DNA of 64,000 nt from an archaeon (GTDB lineage: Archaea > Undinarchaeota > Undinarchaeia > Undinarchaeales > JBDRKL01): NCBI GenBank assembly GCA_043814055.1, contig JBDRKL010000004.1:1-64000 (forward strand), given 5' to 3'. Shown here piece by piece: positions 594-50,259 of this stretch; the stretch's first letter is position 1; every line of letters begins with the position of its first letter. The notes below the pieces were generated by a model. It saw nothing but the letters and a program-made list of their open reading frames with translations, was not told the DNA's origin and searched no databases. Made by a program: the position numbers and the translations under genes.

Positions 594-911
594 CTAACTA
601 TATTCGCGCCACGTGTGTTTACATTTAACGCATCTATAGAATCTAGTCGGAGCCTCGTCAGCTGACCGTGTCTGCTCCATCCAGTAATACGCTTCCAAGT
701 TCTTGCACTTTGGGCACTCCTCTTTTGTCTTTGGCAAGTTCTCCCCTGGGTCCTCAATCAGTACAACATCCTCGGTCTGCTCAATCGCTTCAGTCATGCT
801 TGAGCTCCCATCTTCTTTCTTCTCCCAGCCGCAGACCGGGCAGACAAGAATTGTTTCCCCTCCTTTTTCTTCAGCACTCAGCATCTTTCCGCATTTATCA
901 CAGAACTCCAT
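594..911 (-). CDS. tfs: Transcription factor S (TFIIS/RpoM-like)
   Basis: Two Zn ribbons; QTRSADE motif. Confidence 0.97.
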   Translation of the reverse strand: MEFCDKCGKMLSAEEKGGETILVCPVCGWEKKEDGSSSMTEAIEQTEDVVLIEDPGENLPKTKEECPKCKNLEAYYWMEQTRSADEAPTRFYRCVKCKHTWREYS

Positions 912-1075
912 TCTCAGAACCTGCTATCCGCAGGACCTCCTTTGCTTTTTCCCGGTTCCGAGCACAACGAAACTCCAGCAATCTTATCTTCTTTATTTTC
1001 TCTGGAGATTCGTTGTGAGACCTCCAGCACAAATGCTCCGCATTTGTGTGCGGCTTCGCCGCTATTTAATTTCAT
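909..1075 (-). repeat. Start-codon-associated hairpin element upstream of tfs
   Basis: Stacked hairpins, including a 16-bp stem (963-978/1002-1017); terminal stem ctcggaacc/ggttctgag encloses GGAGG and ends 1 nt before the tfs ATG. Confidence 0.6.
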
Positions 1076-1078
1076 AAT

Positions 1079-1603
1079 TTATAACCCTCCTGTAACATAC
1101 ATCGCTGTAACTTTCACAAACCCGAGCCACGGCATGTGAATAATCGCTTTGCCCTGGTATTCCTTCTCTGTTATCGGACCTGCAATCCCTGAGCCGCTCT
1201 GGTCAGTGTTCATGTTGTTGTCGCCTTTCGTGTAAAGCTCTGCCTCATTCCTCGCGATAACCCTGTGTATTATCGGCTCCCTGTTCTCTGCCTTGTAAAC
1301 TATGACATCTCCAACTTGGACATTTTCAAACGCAATTCCGCGCACAACCACTAATTCGCCCATCTGCATCCCGCGGTCAAAAGACCACTCGCTCCACTGC
1401 TCCTCTGTGATATTATTCTCCCTGAGCCAGCTGTAGTACGTAACCTCCGGGTTGTCGTGCTCCATGCTTGTTGAAACCACAGCCACGACAGGATAATCCG
1501 TGTGCAATCCATACGAGAGCCCTGCATTCGCTCCAACAGCTATCAAGTACCCTGCCACAATGTATGCAGCGATTTCAAGAATATCCCTAACAGTTTTGTT
1601 CAT
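1079..1603 (-). CDS. sec11: Signal peptidase I, archaeal Sec11 type
   Basis: N-terminal TM, VVSTSME catalytic Ser, IIHRV His, TKGDNN. Confidence 0.93.
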   Translation of the reverse strand: MNKTVRDILEIAAYIVAGYLIAVGANAGLSYGLHTDYPVVAVVSTSMEHDNPEVTYYSWLRENNITEEQWSEWSFDRGMQMGELVVVRGIAFENVQVGDVIVYKAENREPIIHRVIARNEAELYTKGDNNMNTDQSGSGIAGPITEKEYQGKAIIHMPWLGFVKVTAMYVTGGL

Positions 1604-1616
1604 TCAATACAACTAG

Positions 1617-1892
1617 TTACTTCGCCTTCTTAAACTTGTCCTCAAGCTCAGCGGTTTTCTTCTCCAGGCGCTGCGCAGCTCCCTTGAGCGCTGCCTTCGG
1701 CGTCCTGCCGCTCACGGTGCGGACAATGATTCGCGGGTTGCCCTTCATCGGGTGCTCAATTATGTAAGCCGCGGTCTTGACCTTGTCGTCCAGCCAGAGC
1801 TCTTCCTTGAGCGCGTTGGCGAAGGTGTGCCCTTCTCCAATTAGTTCAACCTCAATCATGTCTTTGTCTTCTTTTAGAATATTTAGTTCCAT
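1617..1892 (-). CDS. rpoL: RNA polymerase subunit L (Rpo11)
   Basis: GEGHTFANAL..AAYIIEHP motif. Confidence 0.96.
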   Translation of the reverse strand: MELNILKEDKDMIEVELIGEGHTFANALKEELWLDDKVKTAAYIIEHPMKGNPRIIVRTVSGRTPKAALKGAAQRLEKKTAELEDKFKKAK

Positions 1893-1949
1893 TCAAGCTT
1901 TCCTCTTTGTTATTGAATGTCCCTGCAAAGCTTTGCTCTGCAGTTCCAT
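1885..1949 (-). repeat. Start-codon-associated hairpin element with 8-bp direct repeat ATGGAACT
   Basis: ATGGAACT at 1949-1942 and 1892-1885; hairpin ctgcagagc-aaa-gctttgcag; stem cattcaa/ttgaatg around GAGG. Confidence 0.7.
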
Positions 1950-2018
1950 CGTAGCGTTTCTATCATCGCGCGGGTATTTAAGTGTTTTTAGGACTGTGCC
2001 TATGCCCCTCTGCGCCAT

Positions 2019-4914: not shown

Positions 4915-7900
4915 TCAGATTAACCCCTTCTTCCTGCCAAAGTATCCGATTGCAGCCACTGCAAACAAGCCTGCAAAGAGCGCGCCGATTTCTGCGTTCC
5001 CAAGAGTTGCTAAGCCACTCGCTTTTGAGCTCTCGTCCTCTTCTGCAAACACGCTCTCATCAGAGATTTCTACAATTTTCTCAACAACGCCCTCTATCTT
5101 GTAGAACTGCAGTTTCGCCTTCCCATTCTCAATGCCTTTCAGCACCACTGCGAGGTCATCCTCATTGTCATTGTTCACGTCAACATAGGCGACTTCTGAA
5201 ACCTTGAGCACTCTCTCAACCGGGTCTGAGCGTATTGTAACTTTTGCCCAGTCTGTTCCAACCTCATCAATGGTCACAGTGTGCTTCTCTCCTGCTATTT
5301 GGAAAGCTCCAACACTGCCCTTGCCCATTGTGTACTCAGCCGGGCCGTTTGAAATATCCATAGCTACTTCAGCAGGTCCTGAACTGCCCCCGCCTGAGCT
5401 TCCTCCGCTGCTTGCTCCTGGTGACGGGCTCTGGCTTGGCGCAGGAGGCTGTATAACTTCTTCTGGCTCTTCCTCAATCTCTTCGCCTCTCTGGAGAATA
5501 ACCGCTTTGTGCTCTTCAAGGTTCTTCACATTGTTTATCAGCAGGAACTCGCCGTAGGTCTGGCTCTCTGGCACGAGAAGCGATACCATGCTCTGTCCTG
5601 ACGCATCTATGTATGTTCCGTACTTTGTGTAGTAATCCCTTGCAGCCGGCGGCACATCCGCTGTGGTGTGTATGCAGCCTGCTGAAGTCTGCTCGTTGTA
5701 GTAAACAAAGCAACCCATTTCGTCAGAGTCGCTGTCCCAGAACTCTACTCCATTCTGCTCTGCGATTATCTTGTTGCCATCTGGCTCAGTTAAGGTTAAC
5801 TTCTCATTATCATAGCCCAGTGAAAACGCTGATTTGCTGGTCTTTATCTTGACTTCATCCACTTCTGCGTATTTCAGAGTCTGTGCAGATGGGTCTTTTG
5901 CATACCAAAGCTCGGTGTTTATGTCAAGCCAGGCTTCATTTGCCAGCATCTCGTTCCCATTGTGCTTGCAGCTCACATAATCGCCGTCCTGAGTTCTAAC
6001 TCTTATTGTGTTCACACTACCTTCTCCAAGGTCTCGTGTGGTTTGCATAATATCCACATTCACATAAGCCACGTCATTCCCATCGCTGTCCTTAAGCCCG
6101 TTGTATGTAAAGCTCATTATCCCGTTGGGCATTGCTATTGAGTCTCCTGGGTATAGTACTGGGTCTGTTGTATAAACTGTAACGCGAGACTGTACATCTT
6201 TCGCAACTATTTTGCTCAGCGTATCTGAACTGCCCACAAGGTCAACCTGCCAGGTTGTTTCAGTTCCATCTCCCAGCATCAGGTATCCGCCGTTCTCCAA
6301 TACCATAATTCCTGCGCCCACAACCAGCTGAACTTCCCCCTCATTTGTTCCTGAAGTTGTAACAACAGCGTTCTTGACATAAATCTCAACGCCTGCAATC
6401 GTCTCAATAGTGCCTGGTGCAACATACTTGGCCTCGGTAAATCCTTTGTTCGTAACAATAACCTTTGCTTTGTATGCATTGTCCACGCCTGTTGCATAAA
6501 CACCGCCCAAGCTCACGTCAATTCCAGATACAGTCGTAGTTGGGTTTGAAGTTGTCAGAACAACCTCTGCATTCCTGCTTGCGAGTTTTAATACATCCTC
6601 GCTCGCGTTTATAACTGTAAACTCCATTGTCATAAACCAAATCTTATTCCCAACAAGCCCCTCATAATCAACAACCGGTGTGAAGTCGTTCACGTATTTT
6701 ATAGTGCTTCCTGATATGCTCATAAATACCTCGTCATACTGGTCGCCCCAGTTTGTTTCTAAATTGTCCCTTGCTATTTTAACCCCATCCAAATCAATCT
6801 CAACAGTCTCCTGCCACCTGTACTCTTTCCCTTCCACATACAGGTAACCTTTTGTATCAGAGCTGTGCAGGTAGTCAACCAGCGTGTTCCCGTCGTAGTT
6901 TTCGCTGGCTAGCGTGTCTATTCCAACTTTTCCTGTGAAGTCAATCACATAGTTCGGAACAACTGTTTTCTCATAATAAACAACAACCGAGTCCTGCCCA
7001 ACATTTCCAAGCGAGTCTTCTGCAGTTACAGTTATCGTATTCTTTCCTTCCTGCAGTGAAATCTCGCTGAACTTCTCATAGAAGTCAACACTCGTTGGCA
7101 GTTCAACCGAGCTCACTGAGTTCCCGAGCGGCATTTCGCTGAGCACGTTCAGGCTCACGCTTGCGAGTCCGTCCTCGTCACTGGCGTGGCCAAGAATCCT
7201 CAAAGTTGCTTTGTTTACAGTGCTACCCTCAAATGGATACCCAATTTTTACAAATGGCGTAGAGTCAATTGGCGGTTCAGGTTCTGGTACTGTGTATATA
7301 ATATTCAGGTTGCTTACCCTGAGTTTTCCAGTGCCCAATGCGCTGAACGCAAGTTCAATCTGGCAGGTTTCTTCTCCGCAACCAGAAAGCTCTGAGTTTA
7401 GAACATTTGCAAAGTCATGCGTTGTCTCTTTCCCGCTGAATTCACCACTGTGTGTCCAAATCACATCTTCTGATATTGAAACACTTGGGTTTTCAACATA
7501 TTGCTCAACCTCAGCATTTTCTCCTTTCAGGTGCAGCTTGAAGAAGCCATCTGCCTGGCTAAGGTCTGGGTTTGGTATGTTCCATCCTCCTGAGTACTCG
7601 TCATAAAATTCAACGCGGCCGTTTGGATAATCTCCATTGGCGTCATATCCAAGCATGTAACCTCTGCTGCCTGACCCTCCTGAGTATTCAAGCACAAGCC
7701 AATAAGTCGTTCCCTTCTGCAGGGCCACGGCTTCGTCAAATGCAATGTTTTTCCAGGCGTATTCAAAATTGTCAAATGCAGGCAATGTAACCTGAGCTAT
7801 CTTGCTGCCGCTTGGGAGTCCGCCTGAGTCAGCTTGTATGCTTGCCAGTACGCTGGACGCGCCAGTGTAAATCTCGTGTCTCTTTATGTAGGCGTCAACG

Positions 7901-10900
7901 CTTTCCAAGTTTGAGTCTTCGCCAAGCGTGAAGCTCTGCGCCGCCTTGTAGTCCACCCAGTAGCCTGGGCCGTTCTGCGCCCCAAAGTATATGCCGTGGG
8001 TAAGTTCGCCAACATTGTCGTTCTTTACCTCGGCAGATTCCTGCGCCACTCCAACCGCGAGTCCTTCAATGTCCATCACAGCGCTCTTAACTTCTGCATT
8101 TGCTGGAAGTTCAACATACGCGCTCTGCGGGCTTGTTGGGAACTCAAATAGCTTTTCCGCGCTTGAGTCGGAGAAAGTTTTCACCGTATTATCCAAAGTT
8201 AGAGAATATGGCTCATCTTCGTGGACATCAACTGCTGTGACTTCTGCAGTCCACTTGCCCGCCATCGGGCTTTTTATTGTGTAGTCTTCGTTCGTCTCGC
8301 CTTCAAAGTACTCGACTGAGTCGTTCTGCGAGGCCACAAGCGGGTCTATCTTATTGCCGTTTGGGTCATAAAGCACAAGGTCAAGGTCGCTGCCGGGCCA
8401 TTTTAGCGAGAGTTTTATGCTATCCACAATGCCGGACACATCTATGTTGTTATACTTCACTTCGCCTGGGCTTATTGTGCCTGTTACTTCTGTGTCAAGA
8501 CCCTTAAGGAGATTCCAGGCTTCTTCTGAGATGTGGCGTGGGTAGTAGAAAAACCATCCACATGGAGGTTCATTGCCACTAACATCTATATTCTCATATG
8601 ACATAAAAGCCCATAGTGAAATTCCCAAAAAATTATCTGATCCTTCAGTATCCAACGCATAATCTACAGCTTCCAATCCCCCTCTAAGATACTCTGTCAT
8701 CTTTGAGCCGCTGTAGGTAATCTCTCCACTTCCTATTCTAGCCCTTTGCTCAAATTCGTGCTGAGTTGATATTGCTGGCAGACCTATCATTACTGGAGTA
8801 TTCTTCTCATTTGCCATATGCAGGAAGCTTCTTGCAACTTCTCTAGCAGTTGCAGAGTACTCATCATCATCTCCATAGAGGTTGCAGAAATTGAAGAATG
8901 GTATACTTTCATAATCCCCTCTCCAAAGAGCATCAATTATACTATCAAGCGGTTCTGTTAAATCTTTAGTCCATGCTATGTCATAGTTCATCAACGCGAG
9001 GAAGTCCGCATCAAATACCTGGTCATTCAAATTTGTCCAAGGGTACCCCCCCTCCTCTAGCAGGTTTGGAAACACAAGTGAGTTGCCAATTGCTGCTGAA
9101 ACTGTCTTGTTGGTTTTTCTCTTCAGCGAAGTGATAAGTTTTCCAAGATTTTCACTGCACTGCTGTGTTGCGCCAATAGATATTCCAGCGTCACGGAACA
9201 TGTCATATTCTATGTCAAGGTGCACACCATCCACATTTTCATCATTATTTATGGCATACGCTGTGTAGTTTGCCACGTATTCTATTTTATCGTTGTCCCA
9301 GTCACATATATCGCTCTCGCTCGTTGTGTAGCCATCAACCATCACGTAAAGTTTGAAGCCTTCCTCTTTCGGGAACATATCTCTGTAATCCTGGGTCAAA
9401 GTATTCTCATACTCCTGTTCATCGGCTCTCTCAACCCAACTGTATTTCTTTATGTCCTCCCCATATGACCCGTATCTGTTATACCCTCCAGCAAAAATAT
9501 ATTTTATTTTTAAATCATCCGAAACATCTTTGTTATATGCTTCAATGTCCTCTTTGTGTTTTTTTTCTTTGTCTATTTCACGATTCCAATACACCCAAGC
9601 AGCCCGACCCTTCTCCATCTGGTTCTTCTTCACTGGGTCTAATATGCAGGACTTGGCCTGAACCTCCTGTGTCATCAGCCCGCTTGCAAATTGATTCTCA
9701 TATGCGCAAGCATAGTTGTGGGCGCAGTCAATATCATATTGACACTCGTCCTTCGGCTCATCTTTCACGCACGCTGAATTCTCGCACGTGTACCCACTAC
9801 CGCACGGCTGCTCAATCCACTTCGTGTAGCCGTTTGCTTGCATCTGGCAACTTCTCAGTGTTGCGGTGTCCTTGCAATCAAGCGCACCCTGCATGCACTC
9901 GTCAACCGGCTTTGCTACGCAGTTCCCATACCCATCGCAGTAATTGTTTCCTGTGCATCCTTTTGGGTCTTCCTGGCCTTCAGGAATTTGAATCTGTGCG
10001 CATCCCCATGAGCACGTCGGTTGGTAGCATAGGTTGGAACCGCAGGCGCTCTTGTCGCTGCCGCAGTTCTCCTCTGCTGAACAAATCCCATCGCCGCAAA
10101 CAATACTTGGTTGCGCTTCACCAATATACAAAGTGTACCAGTCCTGATAGAATGGAGGCTCGTCTTCGCAAACTCTAATATAATATGTTCCTGATTTCAG
10201 ATTCTTTGTCTTGAATACACCGAATCCTATCTCATCGTTCTCCCATTCCGTAGTGAAATATGTAATTGGCGTGTTTACCTGAACTCCGTCGCAGCCGCCT
10301 TTGTAATCATCCTTATAAAATTGCATAAGCCAGGTGTTCTGCCTGTCCACGTACAGATTTATGTCATAATCACCATCTTCTGGAATCACAATTTTGTGCC
10401 AGTCACCGTATCCTTTGTAAGTGTCGCAATCGCCGTTCGGCACGCTTGAAAGCATATTCCTGCCAAGTGTCATTGAAGGTGCACTGTAACAGTCGCTTGT
10501 TCCTGGGTTCTGCTCTTCTTCATCTTCATCTGGTTCAAATGTTAGCTTTATTCTATAATTTCCAACATTTCCAGGTGACCCCATAGCAATTAACTTATAT
10601 GTTCCTGCATCAAGGTTGGAAATATCTCGAGTTGCATAACTTGATGTCCCAACACTTAAGAATTCACTGGATTCATCACAGGTTGACCATATGCCCATAT
10701 ATAAAGTAGATCCACCAGTGCTATAGAAATCAACCTTCAAATCACCAGATTTTGGCAGCGTGAATTCCCACCAATCTTGGTCATCATAAGTTCCTATTAA
10801 CCCCTCGTACAGGCTATCCAAAGGAAGGTTTGTATTTGAAATTCCACATATGTCAGCTATATCTGCATACGCAGCGCTAGTCATCCCAGCAAACAGAAGA

Positions 10901-10953
10901 ATGCTGGTGAGCATCAAAATCTTGGCAAGTGTTTTGTCCATTCTTTTTTTCAC
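4915..10953 (-). CDS. Giant mosaic cell-surface protein: PPC-like, Cys-rich, GH18-like, beta-sandwich and S-layer-like domains, C-terminal TM anchor
   Basis: Signal peptide; DGVHLDIE (DxxDxDxE-like); WPGSDLDL PPC motif; modules shared with the next gene; TM plus RKK. Confidence 0.8.
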   Translation of the reverse strand: MKKRMDKTLAKILMLTSILLFAGMTSAAYADIADICGISNTNLPLDSLYEGLIGTYDDQDWWEFTLPKSGDLKVDFYSTGGSTLYMGIWSTCDESSEFLSVGTSSYATRDISNLDAGTYKLIAMGSPGNVGNYRIKLTFEPDEDEEEQNPGTSDCYSAPSMTLGRNMLSSVPNGDCDTYKGYGDWHKIVIPEDGDYDINLYVDRQNTWLMQFYKDDYKGGCDGVQVNTPITYFTTEWENDEIGFGVFKTKNLKSGTYYIRVCEDEPPFYQDWYTLYIGEAQPSIVCGDGICSAEENCGSDKSACGSNLCYQPTCSWGCAQIQIPEGQEDPKGCTGNNYCDGYGNCVAKPVDECMQGALDCKDTATLRSCQMQANGYTKWIEQPCGSGYTCENSACVKDEPKDECQYDIDCAHNYACAYENQFASGLMTQEVQAKSCILDPVKKNQMEKGRAAWVYWNREIDKEKKHKEDIEAYNKDVSDDLKIKYIFAGGYNRYGSYGEDIKKYSWVERADEQEYENTLTQDYRDMFPKEEGFKLYVMVDGYTTSESDICDWDNDKIEYVANYTAYAINNDENVDGVHLDIEYDMFRDAGISIGATQQCSENLGKLITSLKRKTNKTVSAAIGNSLVFPNLLEEGGYPWTNLNDQVFDADFLALMNYDIAWTKDLTEPLDSIIDALWRGDYESIPFFNFCNLYGDDDEYSATAREVARSFLHMANEKNTPVMIGLPAISTQHEFEQRARIGSGEITYSGSKMTEYLRGGLEAVDYALDTEGSDNFLGISLWAFMSYENIDVSGNEPPCGWFFYYPRHISEEAWNLLKGLDTEVTGTISPGEVKYNNIDVSGIVDSIKLSLKWPGSDLDLVLYDPNGNKIDPLVASQNDSVEYFEGETNEDYTIKSPMAGKWTAEVTAVDVHEDEPYSLTLDNTVKTFSDSSAEKLFEFPTSPQSAYVELPANAEVKSAVMDIEGLAVGVAQESAEVKNDNVGELTHGIYFGAQNGPGYWVDYKAAQSFTLGEDSNLESVDAYIKRHEIYTGASSVLASIQADSGGLPSGSKIAQVTLPAFDNFEYAWKNIAFDEAVALQKGTTYWLVLEYSGGSGSRGYMLGYDANGDYPNGRVEFYDEYSGGWNIPNPDLSQADGFFKLHLKGENAEVEQYVENPSVSISEDVIWTHSGEFSGKETTHDFANVLNSELSGCGEETCQIELAFSALGTGKLRVSNLNIIYTVPEPEPPIDSTPFVKIGYPFEGSTVNKATLRILGHASDEDGLASVSLNVLSEMPLGNSVSSVELPTSVDFYEKFSEISLQEGKNTITVTAEDSLGNVGQDSVVVYYEKTVVPNYVIDFTGKVGIDTLASENYDGNTLVDYLHSSDTKGYLYVEGKEYRWQETVEIDLDGVKIARDNLETNWGDQYDEVFMSISGSTIKYVNDFTPVVDYEGLVGNKIWFMTMEFTVINASEDVLKLASRNAEVVLTTSNPTTTVSGIDVSLGGVYATGVDNAYKAKVIVTNKGFTEAKYVAPGTIETIAGVEIYVKNAVVTTSGTNEGEVQLVVGAGIMVLENGGYLMLGDGTETTWQVDLVGSSDTLSKIVAKDVQSRVTVYTTDPVLYPGDSIAMPNGIMSFTYNGLKDSDGNDVAYVNVDIMQTTRDLGEGSVNTIRVRTQDGDYVSCKHNGNEMLANEAWLDINTELWYAKDPSAQTLKYAEVDEVKIKTSKSAFSLGYDNEKLTLTEPDGNKIIAEQNGVEFWDSDSDEMGCFVYYNEQTSAGCIHTTADVPPAARDYYTKYGTYIDASGQSMVSLLVPESQTYGEFLLINNVKNLEEHKAVILQRGEEIEEEPEEVIQPPAPSQSPSPGASSGGSSGGGSSGPAEVAMDISNGPAEYTMGKGSVGAFQIAGEKHTVTIDEVGTDWAKVTIRSDPVERVLKVSEVAYVDVNNDNEDDLAVVLKGIENGKAKLQFYKIEGVVEKIVEISDESVFAEEDESSKASGLATLGNAEIGALFAGLFAVAAIGYFGRKKGLI

Positions 10954-11020: not shown

Positions 11021-14000
11021 CTAAGCTGCAGAGCCATTTCCATTAAAGAACTTCTCTGCCAGCTTGATTTTCTTGAGTTTTCCATATTTTTTAGTTTCTA
11101 CAAACCCTTTCTGCTCAAGCTCGGCAATCCATCTGGAGAGCGCAGCGTTTGAAATTCCAGTGTCGTGGTATATGTTTTTCTGGGTGCTTTCCCCTCCACC
11201 TTTGATGATGCTTTTTATTATGTCAGCTTCCCTCTCGGACAAACCTTCAATCAACCCTTCTATCCTTGAGTCAACTATGAGTTCTTTCTTGGAATTTCCA
11301 TTGAGCTTGGTGGACATTTTTTCTATAATCTCCTCCCTGTTCTGCTCTTTTGGAACATAAGTAATGCTCTTCTTCCTGTTGAAGTAAACAAGCCCAAGCG
11401 CTGCAAGCGCGATGGCTCCAAACGAAGCTCCAGCTATCCCCATTACCACATATCCTGTTTGTTTCCCCTCTACAAACTGCTCCTGTCGAATCTTCATAAA
11501 AGTCACATTCGCATTGCCGTCCTCGTCAATGCTGTTCAAAATCAATGCCATGTCATAAACATCATCCCCGTCAAGGTCAACGAAAACAACTTCTGACATG
11601 TTCAGCCTGACTCTGAACGGCTCGGAGCGTATGGTGACAATTGCGTAATCCTCCCCGAGCTCGTCAACTGTGAGGGAGTGCTCCTCTTTGTTTAATACGA
11701 ATCTCTGGCTCTCTCCTTCTTTTATCTGTATCTTGACTGCGTTAACAATTGAGGAGCCGCTGCCTCCGCCGCCCGCTGGCATTGAAGAACTTTCTACGGA
11801 TGAAGTTTCCGTGTCAAGGTTTATCACTTCCGTGACCGAGGTTTCTTCTGGCACTTTTTTCACTACCACCTCTTTCTTAGTGTTTTTTGCAGGAGTTGAG
11901 CTGTAACCTGACCCGCTGCTCGGCTCCTGTGCCTGCACATTAACCGTGAACCCTGCATCGTATTCACTGGCGGTTAATTTTCCAGAGGTGTCATTGCACC
12001 TAACATAATAATGGTGCGCAGAATTGCCCAGCCCGCTCAACGCTTTTGTGTGCGTTGTTGAATTTGTGCTGTCAAAAATTCCTGTCATATCCTTATACGC
12101 GGTTCCGATAGATAGAGAATACCTGCACTCTGCTGGTTCATTTGTAGTTACTTCAAGGGTTGGTGCGCTGGAGCCGGTTGTTCCTGCCGGGGTATGGCTA
12201 TTGACAGTTGGAGCTGCTCTATCTATTGTAGTTATATATTGAGGCGTTGCTGAAATAGGATATTCTATAACCTGAAGCTCGCCAAAACTCTGCCTGATTG
12301 GAATTTGCAAAGAAACTAAACTTGAGCCAACCGAGTCTGCATACGTGCCGTATTGGGTGTAATAATCTCTTGTAAGCGGGCCTGCCATAAAATTATTATC
12401 TGACTCTGAGCCGTATCCTTCATAATAAACATAATACCCCCCTCCATCCCCATTTATGTCCTCAAAATCTCCGCTATTGCTGTTCGCAGTTGCATTATAT
12501 TCAATAGTTATATTCACCCACTCGCTTTCATCAAGCTCAGATAGCCAGAAGTAGCCAGTTTCTACCGTAGAGTTATTTGATTCTATGTATATCTTGAAGA
12601 AAGTGTCTGCCTGAGTCAAGTCTGGGTTTGGTATGTTCCATTCCCCAGAGAACTCGTCATAAAACTCTGCCCTGCCCTCTGAATAGTGCCCGATTGACTC
12701 ATATCCAACCATATAGCCCCGATCCCCTGAGCCGCCGGTGTAATTCAGCACAAGCCAGTAAGTTGTGCTCGCATTGAGGTCTACGGGTGCATCAAATTTG
12801 ATATTCTTCCACTCATAGCCAAAATTGGAAAGAGCAGGTATTGTAACCTCAGCAATTTTTTCACTGCTGCTCGGGAAACCGCCTGAATCTGTTTGTATGC
12901 TGGCTAATATGTCAGTGGCTTCCGTGTATATGTTATGTCTCTGAATATAAACATCAAAGCTTGTTACATTCGCTACCTCCTCTAATTCAAAACTCTGAGC
13001 GGCAACATAATCAACCCAGTACCCAGGTCCTACCTGAGTGCCGAAATATATTCCATCTGTTAAATTTACAGTATCCTCGTGGTATATCTCAAGTTTTTCA
13101 TCCTTTGGGGTCACGTTTTCATATCCCAATATAACGACGTTTTCCTCTGCTATTTGTGGATTTGAAATGCTCTTAGTAAGGTTCAGCACTGGCCTTGTTC
13201 CATCATAAACAGTCAGGTATTCAGAAGGAATGCTGGGATTTTCATAATAAAATCTGTCTGCTCCTCTGATCGCACCTACAAAAAGCGTATTTGTAAAACT
13301 GGTTGCTCCTGTTGAATTATCTGCATAGGATAAATAATTTCCATCTGGTGTCCTCACTCGAATAACAGCTTCTGTTCCATCTCCAAGATCCCGCGTGCTC
13401 GGCATTATGTCCAAATTAATATATTCAGGGCTTGAGCCGTATCGGTCAGTTACTCCATAATACTTAAGCCCGAAGAAATCTCCAGTTGGGTATTTTATGT
13501 CATCTCCTGGATACAAAACAGTATTAGTTTGACTTACAGTAACGTGGGGTTCAGTATCTGTTAATGTTATATAATCAAGCGCCCCAGCGTTCTGCTGAAT
13601 TAGAACTTGCCAAGTGCTTTCTACACCTTCCTGGATAAGATAGGCGCCATCTTCTAGTATTATTGACCCTCCGTCTAGCAACAAAATTCCTGTAGTCAAA
13701 TTACAGGATGCAAAATAATGTTCTTCCCCTGTGAACCAAAGCTTTGTTCCATTTAAATTATTCTCACAATCTATTTTTGAAATATCATCATCAAACTCAA
13801 GCTTGTATGAAATCGTATTGCCTGATACTGCTACATACACCTCGTCATACTGGTCTCCAGCACTTGCGCTCAGCGTGTCTCTCATTACATGGATATTCTC
13901 CTGGTTTACACTAATCTCTTCGTGCCAATCATGCGGAACTCCCTGTATGTCTATTGGCTCTTTGGTGTCTGAACTGTGAACCCAATCCACTGCGTTTCCA

Positions 14001-14482
14001 GCCCCGCTATAACCAGTTGGAACTATTTTATCAATTGAAGTTCCAGCCCTTTCCTCTGATTCATTGCCATACTTGTCAAATTGAACATGCCTTCCAAGTT
14101 TCATTCCGCTGCTTTGTCCAAGATTGTTCCAAACATTAAAATCAAAATATATCTTTGTCCTGTCCGGAAGCGCATCCAAGCCGGTTTTTGAAAGATAAGT
14201 GCCGCAGCTTTTGCCTGAGCCGCTTGGGCAGCTTGTGTTTAAGTTTGGTCCTATTGCATACTGCTGCGCTCCTGTATCCACTCCAAGAAATTCAAATTTC
14301 GTGTAAATAGTGTTATCACAATTATAATCAACAGTAAAGGTTTCGTCGGAAGTGGCGTTCGTATAGCTGTTATTGCCTGGCTGGTAATTTAAAATTGCAG
14401 GCGCGGTGTCTGATGCAAACGCAGGGCTTATGCTCAAAAGAAGTACTAGTGCTATTCCAATTGCAATTATTTGCTTATTCAT
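11021..14482 (-). CDS. S-layer-like surface protein with a TM helix and a cytoplasmic winged-HTH C-terminus
   Basis: Signal peptide; modules paralogous to 4915-10953; TM near aa 1015-1035; GLSEREADII..TQKNI..SNAALSRWIAELEQKGFV wHTH. Confidence 0.8.
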   Translation of the reverse strand: MNKQIIAIGIALVLLLSISPAFASDTAPAILNYQPGNNSYTNATSDETFTVDYNCDNTIYTKFEFLGVDTGAQQYAIGPNLNTSCPSGSGKSCGTYLSKTGLDALPDRTKIYFDFNVWNNLGQSSGMKLGRHVQFDKYGNESEERAGTSIDKIVPTGYSGAGNAVDWVHSSDTKEPIDIQGVPHDWHEEISVNQENIHVMRDTLSASAGDQYDEVYVAVSGNTISYKLEFDDDISKIDCENNLNGTKLWFTGEEHYFASCNLTTGILLLDGGSIILEDGAYLIQEGVESTWQVLIQQNAGALDYITLTDTEPHVTVSQTNTVLYPGDDIKYPTGDFFGLKYYGVTDRYGSSPEYINLDIMPSTRDLGDGTEAVIRVRTPDGNYLSYADNSTGATSFTNTLFVGAIRGADRFYYENPSIPSEYLTVYDGTRPVLNLTKSISNPQIAEENVVILGYENVTPKDEKLEIYHEDTVNLTDGIYFGTQVGPGYWVDYVAAQSFELEEVANVTSFDVYIQRHNIYTEATDILASIQTDSGGFPSSSEKIAEVTIPALSNFGYEWKNIKFDAPVDLNASTTYWLVLNYTGGSGDRGYMVGYESIGHYSEGRAEFYDEFSGEWNIPNPDLTQADTFFKIYIESNNSTVETGYFWLSELDESEWVNITIEYNATANSNSGDFEDINGDGGGYYVYYEGYGSESDNNFMAGPLTRDYYTQYGTYADSVGSSLVSLQIPIRQSFGELQVIEYPISATPQYITTIDRAAPTVNSHTPAGTTGSSAPTLEVTTNEPAECRYSLSIGTAYKDMTGIFDSTNSTTHTKALSGLGNSAHHYYVRCNDTSGKLTASEYDAGFTVNVQAQEPSSGSGYSSTPAKNTKKEVVVKKVPEETSVTEVINLDTETSSVESSSMPAGGGGSGSSIVNAVKIQIKEGESQRFVLNKEEHSLTVDELGEDYAIVTIRSEPFRVRLNMSEVVFVDLDGDDVYDMALILNSIDEDGNANVTFMKIRQEQFVEGKQTGYVVMGIAGASFGAIALAALGLVYFNRKKSITYVPKEQNREEIIEKMSTKLNGNSKKELIVDSRIEGLIEGLSEREADIIKSIIKGGGESTQKNIYHDTGISNAALSRWIAELEQKGFVETKKYGKLKKIKLAEKFFNGNGSAA

Positions 14483-16163: not shown

Positions 16164-16751
16164 TTAAAGTTTTTTAGAACTAAGCCCAGGTGTCCCTTTC
16201 GGCGTTGGTGCCTTTGGGGCTGGTTTTTTCGTCAAATCATCAATCTGAACCCTGCACCTGAGCGGGAACTTCATCTTTGCCCTGCGGAGTGCGTCTTTTG
16301 CAACAACAAGATTGTTATTGTTAATGCTAATGCTCAGTATCTTCTGGTCTCTCTTGACACGCGCAGCCATCCCAATCGGCTTGCCGAACGCCCTGCTCAT
16401 TCCTTCCTGAAACCTGTCAGCCCCAGCGCCTGTTGCGAGCGGGTTTTCGCGAAGAACATGGTGCGGGTATATGCGCATCTTTATAAAAAATGACTTCGGG
16501 CCAACGTTTGCTATGTTCTTGACAGCTGCGACACGGGCCGCCTCAAGCGCGTTGTGCTTTATCTGCGCGGTCTCGTCAGCTACAAGGGAAATTTCAGTAT
16601 CAAACCTGCCCTGCGAGTCGCCCATTTCAAACAGGTGTATCTTCGGTCGTGGAACACCTTTTATATAGTTCAGGCTAGGCTTTCTGTTCGCCCTTCTTGT
16701 GTAAGGGCGCGCGTCCATTCGCTTATAAACTCCTCCGCCTCTTTCTGTCAT
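16164..16751 (-). CDS. rpl10e: 50S ribosomal protein uL16 (L10e)
   Basis: LEAARVA, YPHHVLREN..GAGADRFQEGMSRAFGKP. Confidence 0.97.
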   Translation of the reverse strand: MTERGGGVYKRMDARPYTRRANRKPSLNYIKGVPRPKIHLFEMGDSQGRFDTEISLVADETAQIKHNALEAARVAAVKNIANVGPKSFFIKMRIYPHHVLRENPLATGAGADRFQEGMSRAFGKPIGMAARVKRDQKILSISINNNNLVVAKDALRRAKMKFPLRCRVQIDDLTKKPAPKAPTPKGTPGLSSKKL

Positions 16752-16882
16752 ATTAAATCACCTTTCAAACATTCCAAGTGTCCCATCTATGTGTTCGTTG
16801 TGGTTTTTAAACATATCGAAGCGGCAATTTCGGTCGCTTCGGGATTCACCCGGTCTCAAATTGGAAAGTCTGGGTGTCATAT
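16746..16882 (-). repeat. Hairpin element flanked by an ATATGACA direct repeat, translated as the C-terminal tail of the upstream gene
   Basis: tgtcatat at 16746-16753 and 16875-16882; cacccag..ccgggtgaat..cgaagc..cttcga shared with 23510-23590. Confidence 0.6.
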
Positions 16883-35979: not shown

Positions 35980-36551
35980 CTAACTCTCTTATTATGGTGT
36001 TCCAGTATCATCCCGGTCAGTCTTAGCGTGTGGTCTATCAGCGTGCTTGTTGCGTTGTTCAGGTTTTCCTGATTGGCTTCTATCCACCAGTCGCCTTCCT
36101 TCAAAAACACGGTTTTCTCTTTTACTGACAAATAAGCAGTCCCGTCATTGTTCTCATCCTGCGGGAACCTGTCCCATTTCTCGTCCAGGACAATTACGTG
36201 CTTTATCCTGCCAAGGCCAACACTTGACAAATCTCCCATGGGCATTCCTTTATACGGCAGCTTGGGATTTTTCCTGGCATTTCTCAATGCAAATTCCCTT
36301 CCCCTCCTCAATACTGCTTCCAAAAGCTCGTTGCCTTTCAGAATTTTCGGTTCACTACGAATTTTTTGCTTCGGGGCTGTTGGGTTCTTTGGTGGCAAAC
36401 CATTGCGCTTCCGCGCCTTTCTTTTCTTCTTTTCCTCCTCCATCTGGCGACTTTTCTTCGCCTCCTCTTTCTTGAGCCTGCGTTGTTCCTCGCGCTCTTT
36501 TGACCTATTCTGCGCCTTTTCCCTGCCGCTCAGCTTTTTCTGCTTTTTCAT
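35976..36551 (-). CDS. Hypothetical protein with a highly basic N-terminus
   Basis: 191-aa ORF, ATGA-coupled to the next gene. Confidence 0.6.
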   Translation of the reverse strand: MKKQKKLSGREKAQNRSKEREEQRRLKKEEAKKSRQMEEEKKKRKARKRNGLPPKNPTAPKQKIRSEPKILKGNELLEAVLRRGREFALRNARKNPKLPYKGMPMGDLSSVGLGRIKHVIVLDEKWDRFPQDENNDGTAYLSVKEKTVFLKEGDWWIEANQENLNNATSTLIDHTLRLTGMILEHHNKRVR

Positions 36552-36563
36552 AATTAATATAAC

Positions 36564-37616
36564 TTACTCCAAATCATCATCACTCATCAAAGTAACCAAA
36601 TCTTCAAGCTCTTTCTTCCAATATTTCTTCGCGCTCTTTGCAAACCCAGTGGAGCTAATCACAATCGCGGGTATTCTTCGGGAAATCGCGTCCATCCCCA
36701 CAGTCGCCAGGTCATTTTGCGAAACTCCCTTCTTCGCGTAATCAAAAACTTTAACAAGATAATTCTGCTTGCCCAGCGGCGTCGGCACTTTAACTTCAAG
36801 CTCAACCTCCTGCCCCTCCTTTATGACCTTCTCTTCCATCAGGTCAATCTCCTGCTTCTCAAACCACTGGAGCACGTTGTCCCTGAACGAGCCACGCATC
36901 TCAGCGAGCAGTTCTTTTCTTATTTGTTCCCTTTCGTCATCGCTTATCTTTCTCTCTTCCTCCTCATCTTCTGGCTCTTTTTTCCCCTTTGGAACAAGCT
37001 CGGTCTGTTTGGGTTCAACTTTTTTGGGTTCTGGTTTTGGCTCAGAGCTGCGGATTGGCGGCTTGAGCAACCCATTGTCGCGGGTCTGCGCGTCCCTCTC
37101 AACTCTCTTGGGCTCAGCTTTCGGCTCTTCCTTTTCCTCAACTTTTGGCTCTTCTCTCTCCGCTCTCTTTGGGAAAAGCCGCTTCATTATGATATCTTTT
37201 GCCTGCTCCTCCCTTATATTCGGCGTGTACCAGCAGCGCATCGTGCCGGTCTCATTTTGAAGTGTAAATGCGCTTACCAAATCCTCAAGGTTCTCAAGCA
37301 GTCTTGCCCCGCCTTCATCAACATCAGCCTCGGCAAGCGCCTTGTGGTCCATCAAAACCTGCAGAACTTCCTTGTCCTGCTGAGTGAGTATTGAATTTAT
37401 TTTCTTCTCAAGGGCCCTCTTTTGATCCGGATAATAATACAAGCGCTGGCTGCCAACCCTTCGCTTTGACGCAGCTATCCTGTTCTGCCCCGAGGCATCA
37501 ACAAGTATTGCTGAGACCACTATGGAGTCAACGCCAACCCTTTGCGATATTTCTATTGGAGTGGATGGCCCTGCCCGCTTAATGTAGTCAAGGATGGCTG
37601 CGTCTATCTTTGGCAT
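36564..37616 (-). CDS. Hypothetical protein: N-terminal winged helix, charged linker, C-terminal restriction-endonuclease-like fold (tentative)
   Basis: GPSTPIEIS..IVVSAILVD wHTH pattern; VPTPLG..SSTGFAK C-terminal domain. Confidence 0.65.
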   Translation of the reverse strand: MPKIDAAILDYIKRAGPSTPIEISQRVGVDSIVVSAILVDASGQNRIAASKRRVGSQRLYYYPDQKRALEKKINSILTQQDKEVLQVLMDHKALAEADVDEGGARLLENLEDLVSAFTLQNETGTMRCWYTPNIREEQAKDIIMKRLFPKRAEREEPKVEEKEEPKAEPKRVERDAQTRDNGLLKPPIRSSEPKPEPKKVEPKQTELVPKGKKEPEDEEEERKISDDEREQIRKELLAEMRGSFRDNVLQWFEKQEIDLMEEKVIKEGQEVELEVKVPTPLGKQNYLVKVFDYAKKGVSQNDLATVGMDAISRRIPAIVISSTGFAKSAKKYWKKELEDLVTLMSDDDLE

Positions 37617-37688
37617 AGGTTTAAGATAACGCCGAAGCAATTTAAACTTATCGGAAAAATATTAAAGCCCAGAGGGTAAACCAATATT

Positions 37689-38297
37689 ATGGAGAATCAG
37701 GTTGTGCACGAGCTCAAGCGGCAGGCGGTTCATTTATCAGGTCTCATCTTCGTTGTGCTTTCGTATTATGTTGCCCCGGATATTATACTCGCCCTGCTCA
37801 TTATGACGTTCGTGACAATACTCACGCACTGCTTCTGCCGGCCGGTTGCGCAGAAGTTCAAGCTTACCCGCAAAATCAGCGACTTCATACACAGCTTCGC
37901 GCGCGAGGAGGAAAAGTCAAGGCGGATTTATTTCGGGCCTTCAACATTCTTCGTGGGATTAATCCTGCCGCTCGCAGTGCTGTACCCATTTGACCCTGAA
38001 CTCGCATTGCTCCTGTTCCGCGCCTCGGCAATCGTGCTCTCAATGGGGGACTCGTTTTCAACCGCGATTGGGAAAGCATTTGGAAAGCACAAGATACAAT
38101 ACAACAAGGCAAAGAGCTGGGAGGGTTTCCTCGCCGGATTCTTCGCAGCGTTCGCCGCGACCTCGCTAATTCTCCCAATGCCCATCGTGTTCACAATCTC
38201 TTTGGTCGGAATGCTCGTTGAGTCACTCCCAATCAACGTGAACGACAACCTGAGCATTCCCGTCTCAGTCTGCATAATCCTATGGTTCCTAATTTGA
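37689..38297 (+). CDS. Dolichol/phytol kinase family (SEC59/DGK1-like) membrane protein
   Basis: RQAVH, GDSFSTAIG, KSWEG, NDNLSIP. Confidence 0.9.
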   Translation: MENQVVHELKRQAVHLSGLIFVVLSYYVAPDIILALLIMTFVTILTHCFCRPVAQKFKLTRKISDFIHSFAREEEKSRRIYFGPSTFFVGLILPLAVLYPFDPELALLLFRASAIVLSMGDSFSTAIGKAFGKHKIQYNKAKSWEGFLAGFFAAFAATSLILPMPIVFTISLVGMLVESLPINVNDNLSIPVSVCIILWFLI

Positions 38298-48348: not shown

Positions 48349-48406
48349 AAGTAACTACCAAGAAAGCCCAGGGAGAGGCAGAGGAAACTGTTGAGGAGGA
48401 AAACTA

Positions 48407-48483
48407 AATCAAACACAAAGCGACAAGTAATTGCTGCTTCGTGTTGATTTTAAAGCTGATGAAAAGGAGGAAACTTTAAAATG
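48407..48483 (+). repeat. Start-codon-associated hairpin element upstream of rpoP
   Basis: aacac-aaa-gc..gc-ttc-gtgtt hairpin, then ttttaaag-CTGATGAAAAGGAGGAAA-ctttaaaa overlapping ATG. Confidence 0.72.
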
Positions 48484-48624
48484 GTTGAATACAAATGCGG
48501 CTCGTGCAAACACATAGTCAAGGAGCCAAGGGATGCATCAGGAACGCTGCGATGTGTGAAGTGCGGCTATAAGATAATGTTCAAGGCAAGGCAGCCTGTA
48601 GGTACTCACGTCAAGGCGATATAA
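48481..48624 (+). CDS. rpoP: RNA polymerase subunit P (Rpo12); absent from the ORF track (47 aa)
   Basis: MVEYKCGSCK..LRCVKCGYKIMFKAR..VKAI; canonical position. Confidence 0.93.
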   Translation: MVEYKCGSCKHIVKEPRDASGTLRCVKCGYKIMFKARQPVGTHVKAI

Positions 48625-48848
48625 TGCTTGAGAAAGAGCTGCTTATCCAGGTCAAAAACCCAAAAGCAGCGCTCAAGGCGCTTAAGCCAGACATTGACAG
48701 GACAGAGCGCTTTGAGGTTGAGCTAGTTGCAGAGGAAAAGGGAATCCGCATAAAGGCGAAGGCAACCGATGAAGCAGCTCTGAGAGCTGCAATCGGCTCA
48801 TACTCACGTCTCATTGAGATGATTGCAAGCACGGAGGTTAAACTTTAA
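48624..48848 (+). CDS. pcc1: KEOPS subunit Pcc1
   Basis: ALKPD..ALRAAIGSYSRL; position. Confidence 0.85.
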   Translation: MLEKELLIQVKNPKAALKALKPDIDRTERFEVELVAEEKGIRIKAKATDEAALRAAIGSYSRLIEMIASTEVKL

Positions 48849-48849
48849 A

Positions 48850-49209
48850 ATGACTGAACAAATTTCCCCAGAAATACAACAGAAGATTATGGAATTTCAA
48901 GAGGCTCAGCAACAGGCTAGAATGGTTATGACGCAGAAGTACCAGATTGAGATTCAGCTCAGGGAAGTCCAGAATGCGCTGGGTGAGCTGGAAAAGCTGG
49001 AAAAGGCAGAGGTTCACAAGGCTGTAGGCCAGATACTAATCAAGACTGACAAGGCATCAATGACCAAGGAGCTCAAGGACAAGGAAGAAACTCTTGGCGT
49101 CCGGCTCAAGACAATTGAGAAACAAGAGGACAAGCTTAAGGAAAAAATGCAGGGTCTGCAGGACAGGCTTCAGGGCGTAATCGGCCCGGCGCCGAGCGCG
49201 GGCGGTTAG
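48850..49209 (+). CDS. pfdB: Prefoldin subunit beta
   Basis: Coiled coil with VHKAVGQILI hairpin. Confidence 0.95.
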   Translation: MTEQISPEIQQKIMEFQEAQQQARMVMTQKYQIEIQLREVQNALGELEKLEKAEVHKAVGQILIKTDKASMTKELKDKEETLGVRLKTIEKQEDKLKEKMQGLQDRLQGVIGPAPSAGG

Positions 49210-49215
49210 TCTGAA

Positions 49216-50259
49216 ATGGAAGTTCTGCAAGTTCTCAGGGAATCCACTGAAAAGAATATACTTCTTCTAGCGCACCACAACGCGGACCCTGATGCAGTGT
49301 GCAGCGCAATCGCGCTATCCGAAGGGCTCAAGCAAATCGGATGCAAAAGCGTAAGAATTGGATTTGTTGAGAGCATCAGCAAGCTTTCCCAGAAAATTGT
49401 TAACAAGCTTAATTATGAGATAGACCTGAACCCTAACCTGAACGCGGACTTGATTGTTCTTCTTGACACTTCAACAGCGGGCCAGCTCTCAAAAATGGCA
49501 GATAAGTTCAAGAGCGCAAAGGCAGAGAAAATTATCATAGACCACCACACTCCTACAGAGGAGCCGCTTGAGGCGGACCACAAGCTCGTTGACGAGAAAG
49601 CAAGCTCAACTGTTGAGCTTGTCTACGACCTGCTCAAGGAACTCGGTGTGGAAATTTCAAAAGAGGTTGCTGAAGCAATGTGCTTCGGCCTCGTCGCAGA
49701 GACAGCGCACCTGCAGTTCGCCACGCCAAAAGTTTTCAGGATTCTTGCCGATCTTCAGGAAAAGCACGGCATAGTGCATCAGGATATTCTTGAACTCCTT
49801 CGGACTCAAGTTGACGTGTCTGAAAAAATCGCGCACTTCAAGGCAGCGGGCCGGACAAACGTTACCCGCGTCAAGAACTATCTCATAGTCACAACACGCG
49901 TTGGCTCTTTTGAGGCCTCGTGCGCCCGTGCGTTAATGAGAATGGGTGCTGACCTTGCTGCGGTCTCGTCCAAGCCGGATGAGCTTCGCATAAGCATGCG
50001 CTCTTCGCATAGTTTCCTCACTGAAACCGGCATAGACCTTGGCAGGGACATAATGCCAGGGCTCATAAAAATCATAGACGGAACCGGAAGCGGTCACCCG
50101 ACAGCAGCAGGCGCCAACGGCAATGCGCTTGACAAGGAAAAGGAAGCGATGGCATTCATAGTTTCATTTGTCCAAAATAAACTGGAGAATCAGCACACGT
50201 TGCAAAGCAACGTGTGCGTGACAGCCGCTGATAAAAAGAAGGGAGTGGCTGGAAAATGA
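49216..50259 (+). CDS. DHH family phosphoesterase
   Basis: HHNADPDA, DTS, IDHH, GSGHPTAAG. Confidence 0.92.
   Translation: MEVLQVLRESTEKNILLLAHHNADPDAVCSAIALSEGLKQIGCKSVRIGFVESISKLSQKIVNKLNYEIDLNPNLNADLIVLLDTSTAGQLSKMADKFKSAKAEKIIIDHHTPTEEPLEADHKLVDEKASSTVELVYDLLKELGVEISKEVAEAMCFGLVAETAHLQFATPKVFRILADLQEKHGIVHQDILELLRTQVDVSEKIAHFKAAGRTNVTRVKNYLIVTTRVGSFEASCARALMRMGADLAAVSSKPDELRISMRSSHSFLTETGIDLGRDIMPGLIKIIDGTGSGHPTAAGANGNALDKEKEAMAFIVSFVQNKLENQHTLQSNVCVTAADKKKGVAGK
50187..50258 (+). repeat. Start-codon-associated hairpin element translated as the DHH C-terminal tail
   Basis: Perfect 11-bp hairpin gcacacgttgc-aaa-gcaacgtgtgc, then cagccgc-TGATAAAAAGAAGGGA-gtggctg before ATG. Confidence 0.7.

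Follow-up and report, generated by a model that had tools for sequence, protein, structure and literature searches.

REP/BIME sequences and REPINs are short imperfect palindromes that occur as mosaics and dimers, have covarying stems and are mobilised by RAYT; the haloarchaeal PATEs, hairpin-type miniature inverted-repeat transposable elements (MITEs) derived from IS200/IS605, make no duplication, insert 3′ of a fixed tetra- or pentanucleotide and need TnpA (Y1). Another set of palindromic repeats, the MJREs of Methanocaldococcus jannaschii, was reportedly described by Suyama in 2005. That study is cited in a passage of PMC2229807. The nearest precedent for the present case is mycobacterial: MIRUs (Supply et al. 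1997) appear to insert at start codons and to hold an internal open reading frame (ORF) coupled at −4, according to a passage of PMC12548453, and coupling by termination and reinitiation is reported there for archaea, including Haloferax. Here, we describe a repeat of two hairpins that sits on start codons in an archaeon of the Undinarchaeales, beginning from a window of 64,000 nucleotides (nt; the whole stretch analysed, positions 1 to 64,000 of contig JBDRKL010000004.1 of assembly GCA_043814055.1, called C4 below, with the other contigs numbered likewise) in which an initial annotation had noticed hairpins at ten gene junctions. With moderate confidence, we consider the copies to be lineage-specific, non-autonomous, palindrome-rich small insertion elements with mosaic relatives, similar to MITEs and REPs and tolerated because they bring a built-in ribosome-binding site and translational coupling.

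The assembly is archaeal, amounts to 0.98 Mb in 14 contigs and is 82% complete. The comparison set consisted of 12 genomes of the same order (0.6–1.0 Mb), among which ours is the sole member of its family; the closest ones belong to other families and share about 50–78% protein identity. The repeat was first exposed by a genome scan for stems ending on an ATG with a Shine–Dalgarno (SD) motif in the loop. Its canonical unit is about 76–80 nt long, an imperfect hairpin 1 followed by hairpin 2, and the approximate consensus begins with (A)ATG-AG and hairpin 1 (ACACAAAGC, a loop of about 17 nt, GCTTCGTGT), which usually carries an A.C mismatch or a bulged A, and ends with a T and hairpin 2 (CATTTCAAAG, CTGGTGAAAGGAGGTGAAA, CTTTGAAATG). 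The loop of hairpin 2, 14–18 nt in length, holds GGAGGTGA, complementary to the 16S 3′ end of this genome (GATCACCTCCT), and the 3′ arm ends in ATG; the SD sequence is always in this loop, and the start codon pairs with CAT/TAT of the 5′ arm. Searches with nhmmer gave 33 genome matches at E<0.01, and a covariance model (R1) built on 25 genome-wide copies gave 35 at the same threshold, with E-values down to 1e-15; not counting an echo on the reverse strand, and with each dimer or composite counted once, the R1 matches represent about 32 loci. The motif TTTCAAAG-N12-22-CTTTGAAATG has 20 strand-matches in this genome and none in the reversed control. Some copies form tandem dimers, the second unit being 93% alike between them.

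The copies are placed with precision. Twenty-seven nhmmer matches end exactly on the ATG of an ORF of 47–729 amino acids (aa), and three diverged loci also end at a gene's ATG: 23510 in the window, C7:111909 (a 414-aa ORF) and C9:270 (a 355-aa ORF, the ATG lying 6 nt further). Altogether, about 30 of the 32 loci end on the ATG of a gene, two having no gene behind them (C9:38007 and C10:112096), and all copies are in sense orientation to the flanking genes; at many loci, the upstream gene stops in or beside the first ATG(A). The hosts include transketolase N and C, Top6A, Top6B, aEF2, PyrI, S28e, L18Ae, NDK, FKBP, dCMP deaminase, sugar-nucleotide enzymes, an ABC ATPase, SBDS, RpoP and Mbh subunits, and the functional unrelatedness of host genes that was noticed in the window holds genome-wide.

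The pairing of the stems is reflected in their evolution. In an alignment of 34 copies, itself fitted to the model, both partners have changed in 13 of 17 pairs (41 cells), a level reached by 0 of 500 shuffles (score 0.233, with slid partners at or below 0.070). An A.C mismatch, in the form AAA/TTC, marks hairpin 1 in 19 of the 31 copies with letters at that column pair and is kept while the stem sequence changes; wobble pairs, considered as a clue to the strand of action, gave no signal (13 G.T and 18 A.C cells). We folded 11 stretches, the ten junctions and 28955–29035, against 200 dinucleotide shuffles each. No shuffle was as stable as the native sequence at 926–1075 (z −4.42), 1885–1960 (z −3.22), 23510–23600 (z −5.26), 44922–45038 (z −3.77), 50180–50261 (z −6.13) and 28955–29035 (z −3.53), and one was at 41785–41923 (z −3.30); the remaining four folds stand out less from shuffled sequence, with 18 shuffles as stable for 16746–16890, 5 for 28438–28510, 11 for 29869–29955 and 6 for 48400–48486. 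Energy windows of 40 nt discriminated poorly, as only five to six of the ten windows at or below −20 kcal/mol fell in elements and the rest were coding hairpins, and an inverted-repeat listing of the window gave mostly trivial palindromes. At the gathering score, none of the elements matched Rfam, whose only match in the window lies outside them.

Hairpins are present at all ten junctions of the initial annotation, CTGAT(A/G)AAA occurs in the three copies named there, and the terminal stem with a GGAGG/GGTGA loop and a 3′ arm ending in ATG is the hallmark of a family found throughout the genome; the covariation that was read from a few stems is borne out by the larger alignment. What needs revision is the unity of the set. 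R1 recovers five of the ten junctions strongly and does not recover 909–1075, 41773–41933 and 50187–50258, which are built from other hairpin modules, and its match at rpoL is not significant; because it recovers only part of the junctions, the ten are best described as a shared architecture spread over several related sequence families, three of which are distinguished as A, B and C in the following list. The copies at 28958–29027, 24800–24911 and 51065–51170 had been missed earlier.

909–1077, minus strand: mosaic hairpin insert upstream of a TFS/RpoM-like gene (594–911), supported by the fold test and not matched by R1; a native GGAGGG and ATG (1077–1075) open a 53-codon frame whose TGA lies 2 nt before the ATG at 911–909, and one hairpin resembles the third hairpin of two composites on C10 and C11 (see below).
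1890–1949, minus strand: two-hairpin insert at rpoL with ATGGAACT present twice; R1 gives only 12.6 bits (1889–1950, E 2.7). An 18-codon frame runs from the first ATG to a TGA that abuts the second; the first ATG is preceded, at about 27 nt, by a TATA-like box. A sister copy is found at scpA (C12:136258–136318).
16749–16881, minus strand: insert at rpl10e with ATATGACA present twice, the first part (16812–16881) being a diverged family-A unit, borderline in R1 (24.4 bits, E 0.012); from the first ATG, a frame of 40 codons reaches its stop 9 nt short of the working ATG. The fold does not reach significance, and the upstream DUF1512 ORF reads through.
23510–23594, minus strand: diverged family-A unit at an mbhL/mbhM-like junction (34.7 bits, E 1e-4); hairpin 1 is CACCCAGGC/GCCCGGGTG with the A.C mismatch and hairpin 2 is ATTTCGAAG/CTTCGAAAT with GGAGGTGA in the loop. 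ATA now stands where the upstream ATG was, and mbhL reads through; the resulting C-terminal extension of MbhL is absent from six aligned homologues.
24800–24911, minus strand: family-B hairpin modules in frame after the mbhL start codon, adding about 32 N-terminal residues; 48 nt are 90% identical to 41826–41873.
28439–28504, minus strand: family-A unit with a short hairpin 1 between MnhB-like and NuoK-like mbh genes (63.3 bits); ATGA at both ends, the frame ending in the ATGA overlap.
28958–29027, minus strand: family-C unit, sister of 50191–50258 (about 87% identical over 70 nt); it has no upstream ATG, and the mbh ORF upstream of it continues across the unit to a stop codon in the final ATGA.
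29870–29950, minus strand: canonical family-A unit between MrpF-like and MnhG-like genes (83.6 bits); the upstream gene stops in the first ATGA, and the frame from that ATG ends in the second.
41773–41933, plus strand: multi-hairpin (family B) insert of 129 nt at rnp3, between two copies of the gene's first 16 nt (ATGTACGACCTACACA); the frame from the first ATG overruns the second, and modules recur at 24812–24859, C8:32464–32528 and C12:143498–143527.
44964–45035, plus strand: family-A unit upstream of SBDS (70.3 bits); the frame from the upstream ATG at 44968 ends 4 nt past the working ATG (checked by hand), and 44922–44963 holds more junction sequence, including a repeat of AAAATCATG.
48407–48483, plus strand: family-A unit upstream of rpoP (48481–48624; 78.8 bits); its left end is AATC instead of AATG and opens no upstream frame.
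50191–50258, plus strand: family-C unit upstream of a UPF0147 gene, with AAGGGAG in the loop; the DHH-family ORF continues across it as far as a stop codon in the final ATGA.
51065–51170, no strand assigned: B-type hairpins, non-coding, between convergent genes and not at a start codon.

The case for insertion comes from the comparison with relatives. The motif has no match in the 12 other genomes of the order, and the junctions that are filled here are short there. In 10 of the 12 relatives, the conserved 3′ end of pyrB runs directly into the ATGA of pyrI; in our genome, the same flank is followed by ATGA, an element of 75 nt, ATGA again and the conserved codons of pyrI. The tktN–tktC and top6B–top6A junctions behave likewise, with ATGA, TAATG or spacers of at most 20 nt in the relatives, and the psmA–SBDS junction measures 110 nt here vs. 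0–50 nt in the relatives, where no such hairpins are seen (19 relatives' loci). All 11 relatives that have rnp3 begin the gene with ATGTACGA(Y)(Y)T(R)CA, once, and the first 16 nt stand twice here, around 129 nt. The rpoL gene of the relatives opens with ATGGAACT about 27 nt downstream of a TATA-like box, a spacing that corresponds to a leaderless mRNA; our genome has the same promoter and, behind it, ATGGAACT on both sides of 49 nt of hairpins. The starts of rpoL, rpl10e, scpA and rnp3 are all conserved in the relatives and single there, and by this family-level comparison of sequences the inserts are likely the derived state. At tktN–tktC, two relatives (G009 and G001, loci L121 and L122) carry a small ORF with two CxxC pairs, ATGA-coupled to tktN, at the place where our genome has a hairpin element.

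Copying within the genome is recent. The composites at C10:26384–26517 and C11:6812–6945 differ at 2 of 136 positions in unrelated flanks, and their likeness runs from AATG to AATGGC; the C10 copy stands before the gene of an oxidoreductase beta subunit, the C11 copy before that of a zinc-ribbon protein of 61 residues. Elsewhere, matches to the motif are few and scattered. Among 185,579 GTDB species representatives, the motif gave seven single matches, the one archaeal match inspected not being the element; JGI metagenomes gave 12 single matches, of which one is real, and viral contigs none, in scans that may leave out records of the window's own genome. The real match is on a 1.7-kb metagenome contig (L045), where hairpin 2, hairpin 1 and hairpin 2 precede thyX; its ThyX is 78% identical to ours, its hairpin 2 consensus about 91% alike, and thyX in our genome has no element at its start. 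The insert-free junctions of the relatives, the absence of the motif from their genomes, the near-identical copies, the unrelated host genes and the locus-specific duplications support the first idea of the initial annotation, an insertion at translation starts that is made harmless by the ribosome-binding site it supplies, with mobility itself the most plausible way in which the copies arise.

To this idea we can add an upstream component. An SD-like motif lies 7–17 nt upstream of 23 of 29 upstream ATGs vs. 15.5% of 5000 random ATGs, and many of these ATGs are that of an ATGA or TAATG overlap with the preceding gene. The frame that they open is free of stops in all 26 copies, the other two frames having up to eight, and in 23 of the 26 it ends between −9 and +1 of the working ATG. 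A TGA one base before the working ATG (−4) is found in 12 copies and an end in the working ATGA overlap in nine; rpoL (−3), TFS (−5) and rpl10e (−9) contribute one case each, and in three cases the frame runs past the start: at rnp3 (62 nt beyond), at C12:97275 (13 nt beyond) and from one of two ATGs at C12:84959. The frames, 18–53 codons long, stay open over element lengths of 57–164 nt and across composites, a dimer (46 open codons vs. six and eight stops in the other frames) and unrelated module families. A spacing divisible by three, the only phase that stops early in the loop, is seen in no copy of family A; with seven distinct lengths, this absence is only suggestive. Where family-C copies and the mbhL/mbhM copy have no upstream ATG, the gene in front of the element is itself open as far as the final ATGA or just past it. 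A native SD sequence, an ATG and a stop-free frame ending at the working ATG fit the layout of termination–reinitiation.

We picture the process as follows. Each copy sits directly behind what we take to be a former start codon, be it the ATG of an ATGA/TAATG operon junction, an SD-preceded ATG or a leaderless ATG, and ends in a fresh ATG that has become the gene's present start; because the copy lies between the two, ATG and 0–13 bases of the gene are present twice. The host gene would then be expressed through the element's own SD sequence and the short frame opened by the old ATG: ribosomes arriving from the old start would melt both hairpins, terminate at the new ATG or 1–9 nt before it and reinitiate, the loop SD assisting and the translating ribosome opening the stem in which the start codon lies. 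From this layout, we would expect translation of the short frame, and initiation driven by coupling and not by the loop SD alone.

The duplicated gene starts carry information about the copying. Those reported for the window are real (16 nt at rnp3, ATGGAACT at rpoL, ATATGACA at rpl10e and ATGA at two mbh junctions), and genome-wide the bases behind the first ATG match the gene's own bases over a mean of 1.97 vs. 0.65 in shuffled pairings (0 of 10000 permutations), or 1.37 when rnp3 and the rpoL/scpA pair are left out (again 0 of 10000). The repeat is locus-specific and variable, ATG plus 0–5 nt in general and plus 13 nt at rnp3. The rpoL-type element is found at exactly two genes, rpoL and scpA, and both natively begin with ATGGAACT (scpA as judged from its orthologues); in the ATG(G/A)CA subfamily, the host genes begin with ATGGCA or ATGACA in five of five copies. 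About 22 of 33 copies have (A)ATG as their left flank, and their right end likewise reads AATG. This pattern could stand for a target and a similar right cleavage site, but the extra locus-specific bases argue for a duplication. A fixed staggered cut does not explain the repeat lengths; copying through short homology or an enzyme with loose spacing would. Given the variable, locus-specific repeat and the lack of any match to a transposase, microhomology-guided copying fits at least as well as a classical transposase, and an element may be copied from a filled donor junction into an empty start under the guidance of short homology. A bolder version, to which we give only tentative credence, is that elements actively home to start codons, copying into gene starts that share the flanking repeat (from AATG up to 16 nt) instead of being selected there after random insertion; template switching or gene conversion by microhomology, or an enzyme reading hairpin 1, might achieve this, and the cassette of upstream frame and SD sequence might have evolved as a "safe-landing" device. 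If true, this would give archaea their first described mobile DNA that homes to start codons, and transposition a new logic.

Several observations weigh against insertion by a mobile element with translational coupling. The nearest genomes belong to other families, so that a true empty site in a close relative is missing and "insertion" rests on inferring the ancestral state; the empty-site comparison proposed initially gave insert-free junctions and single gene starts at the family level, and a search for closer relatives through MbhL reached 68% identity for the best non-self protein and no population-level empty site. The flanking repeat is not the fixed-length target-site duplication expected of MITEs, and terminal inverted repeats are missing, the left end (ATGAGACAC..) and the right end (..CTTTGAAATG) not being inverted copies. 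As in the initial annotation, no mobilising enzyme is visible: Y1_Tnp (PF01797), RVT_1, the TnpB TNB domain, phage integrase, DDE_Tnp_1 and IS110 were sought without a match in the genome, which is 82% complete. On the translational side, the distance from GGAGG to ATG is about 12 nt vs. 4–10 nt at native sites, the unit at 48407–48483 has no upstream ATG, and the overruns at rnp3 and C12:97275 extend 62 and 13 nt beyond the start. In the metagenome copy, the ATG that ends the first hairpin 2 opens a frame stopping 27 nt early, and only the ATG inside that loop gives a frame ending at −4; the upstream neighbour of thyX also differs between that contig and our genome. The open frames may in part reflect the shared descent of the copies and not selection. 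Finally, B-type hairpins occur away from starts, and not every module needs a start codon.

This last point touches on the wider set of modules. B-type hairpins are found in frame in mbhL, beside a tRNA and a promoter on C8 and between the convergent genes at 51065–51170, so palindromic modules seem to persist wherever they are tolerated, the start-codon class being the subset that rebuilds a start. The mbhL insert is absent from five of six aligned homologues, and MbhL has 469 aa vs. 402–437 aa in the 119 homologues listed. Element read-through also lengthens C-termini, namely those of the DUF1512 ORF (16758–18131, minus strand), MbhL (23502–24911, minus strand) and the DHH-family ORF (49216–50259, plus strand). 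This makes the elements a trap for annotation: gene callers would choose the earlier ATG, join the preceding genes across the element or overlook where the gene really begins, and automatic annotation would give chimeric tails to MbhL, the DUF1512 protein and the DHH protein.

The rival that survives best, though we think it unlikely, is a dispersed cis-acting translational control RNA, in which hairpin 1 binds a protein and hairpin 2 holds the start codon in a stem and displays the SD sequence, copies being kept as they tune many housekeeping genes, for example, by temperature or forced coupling. The covariation of both stems, the A.C mismatch persisting through changes of the stem, the start codon paired with CAT/TAT below a loop that always holds the SD sequence and the hairpin 2 consensus, about 91% alike in a relative with 78% identical ThyX, speak for it. 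Yet the hosts form no functional group, the orthologous junctions in the 12 genomes of the order work without the motif, and near-identical composites, tandem dimers, fragments and gene-less copies resemble proliferation. Known RNA thermometers of the ROSE/fourU type keep the SD sequence base-paired in a stem; here, it is unpaired in the loop with only the start codon in the stem, and no Rfam family matches. A control role could be a later, domesticated stage of the insertion story. Two specific RNA structures were rejected on inspection. The CUGAUGA loop recalls the box C of a K-turn/L7Ae-type leader, but GA dinucleotides are not beside the stem, the motif varies (CTGGTGAAA, CTGGAGAAA, CTGGTAAAA and others) and Rfam has no match; a bulge–helix–bulge intron would need 3-nt bulges spaced by 4 bp, and none were seen.

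Rather improbably, in our view, there may be no dedicated mobile element at all, only by-products of replication and repair (template switching at quasi-palindromes and microhomology-mediated gene conversion) that survive where a start is rebuilt. This departs from the explanation that we prefer only in the copying machinery, and several facts speak for it: none of the six enzyme families was found, the flanking repeats are variable and locus-specific (3 to 16 nt), the rpoL-type element and the ATG(G/A)CA subfamily are confined to genes with the matching native starts, and the hairpin modules are mosaic. About 30 copies of a well-conserved 80-nt unit with conserved hairpin features nevertheless suggest a recognised substrate. 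Far less credible are genuine small-protein genes whose peptide family of 21–26 residues would account for the nucleotide conservation; the frames are always open and 12 copies encode a similar M..(K/Q)....SFV(F/C)ISKL.K...L, but two phases across hairpin 2 produce unrelated C-terminal halves (ISKL.. vs. FKAGE..), lengths vary from 18 to 53 codons, and it is the base pairs that are conserved, not the codons. The use of two phases leads us to reject a leader peptide as the conserved unit. Chance or an artefact of an incomplete assembly in 14 contigs can practically be dismissed, given E-values to 1e-15, an empty reversed control and copies inside long contigs between conserved genes.

The setting of the window deserves a few remarks. 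A minus-strand mbh/mrp-type hydrogenase operon occupies about 22.5–30.2 kb, and the plus strand holds the conserved archaeal "exosome" string (L15e, Rpp30, Pop5, PsmA, SBDS, Rrp4, Rrp41, Rrp42, L37ae, RpoP, Pcc1 and prefoldin). The minimum of the cumulative GC skew at about 36000–38000 and the switch of gene orientation from minus to plus at about 37.6 kb suggest a replication origin; all elements are co-oriented with their genes and therefore with replication. Two very long ORFs lie on the minus strand, 4915–10953 (2012 aa) and 11021–14482 (1153 aa). The start of prefoldin-beta (48823–48853) is most likely the ATG at 48851, behind GGAGGTTAAACTTTAAAATG, not the TTG at 48823 of the ORF list, and this native site resembles the 3′ half of hairpin 2. 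The Rfam match mentioned above is an RT-16 RNA at 43319–43495 on the plus strand (82.8 bits vs. a gathering score of 50), inside a 1.1-kb insert that separates rnp3 from rnp2 and directly 3′ of a 227-aa ORF (42635–43318); this ORF matches no Pfam family and resembles only hypothetical proteins labelled Nanobdellota/Woesearchaeota (Atlas). As a pointer to a reverse transcriptase, the RNA led nowhere, RVT_1 not being found in the genome. A relative of another family in the order (G005) has a dispersed repeat of its own, GCTGAACCAATTT(C/A)ACA, a few bases upstream of start codons and often preceded by low-complexity palindromes (e.g., L142, L169 and L111); it has 31 matches with at most one mismatch in a 0.7-Mb genome, none in the reversed control and 0–1 in four other relatives. 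Lineage-specific repeats near starts may be common in this order.

Whatever their origin, the elements amount to about 30 natural "bicistronic cassettes" with variants (no upstream ATG, −4 stop or overlap, dimers, read-through) that could serve to test termination–reinitiation and a loop-displayed SD sequence in an archaeon with a small genome that has received little study. Flanking repeats that vary in length and look like homology, in a genome where no transposase was found, give a hint of a way of copying that would be worth uncovering.

How the elements relate to known systems differs from case to case. They share with REP/BIME the many-copy palindromes, mosaics and dimers, the location in transcribed inter-cistronic space and the covariation, but REPs lie after stop codons and have no ribosome-binding site; a cognate RAYT (PF01797) had no match in the genome, at a completeness of 82% that leaves its absence unproven. 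The likeness to PATEs consists of sub-terminal imperfect hairpins without terminal inverted repeats, strand-specific orientation and insertion beside a short specific sequence; here, however, ATG and variable bases are duplicated, and neither TnpA nor TnpB was found. Rickettsia palindromic elements and MJREs are tolerated inside frames, as are the N-terminal insert of mbhL and the read-through tails, but are not tied to start codons and supply neither SD sequence nor start. Synthetic bicistronic designs come close in their translational logic, with a leader ORF that contains the downstream SD sequence, ends at or overlapping the start and keeps the site unfolded by being translated; they are engineered, not repeated, and lack hairpin 1.

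MIRUs are direct or tandem repeat units, not two-hairpin units, and we know of no transposase for them. With them, the elements share the nature of short dispersed repeats at start codons inside operons, as about 30 of the 32 loci show, and the coupled internal ORF, judged here from frames read in the sequence. They differ in being archaeal and hairpin-built, with the SD sequence in a loop and a variable duplicated gene start, and in the 12 copies that use TGA-N-ATG, not the ATGA overlap; the passage on MIRUs consulted in PMC12548453 names no SD sequence in a hairpin loop. The comparison is one of descriptions, not sequences; with an archaeal host, homology is not expected, and the two are presumably unrelated sequence families. 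Among open-access papers, we found no description of start-codon hairpin repeats in archaea, and the initial impression that this is not a described kind is accordingly right for archaea and only partly right overall, because the MIRU precedent exists. On the reading that we prefer, the elements are the archaeal counterpart of MIRUs, and the idea tied until now to MIRUs, that selfish DNA can colonise start codons by preserving translational coupling, would extend to archaea.

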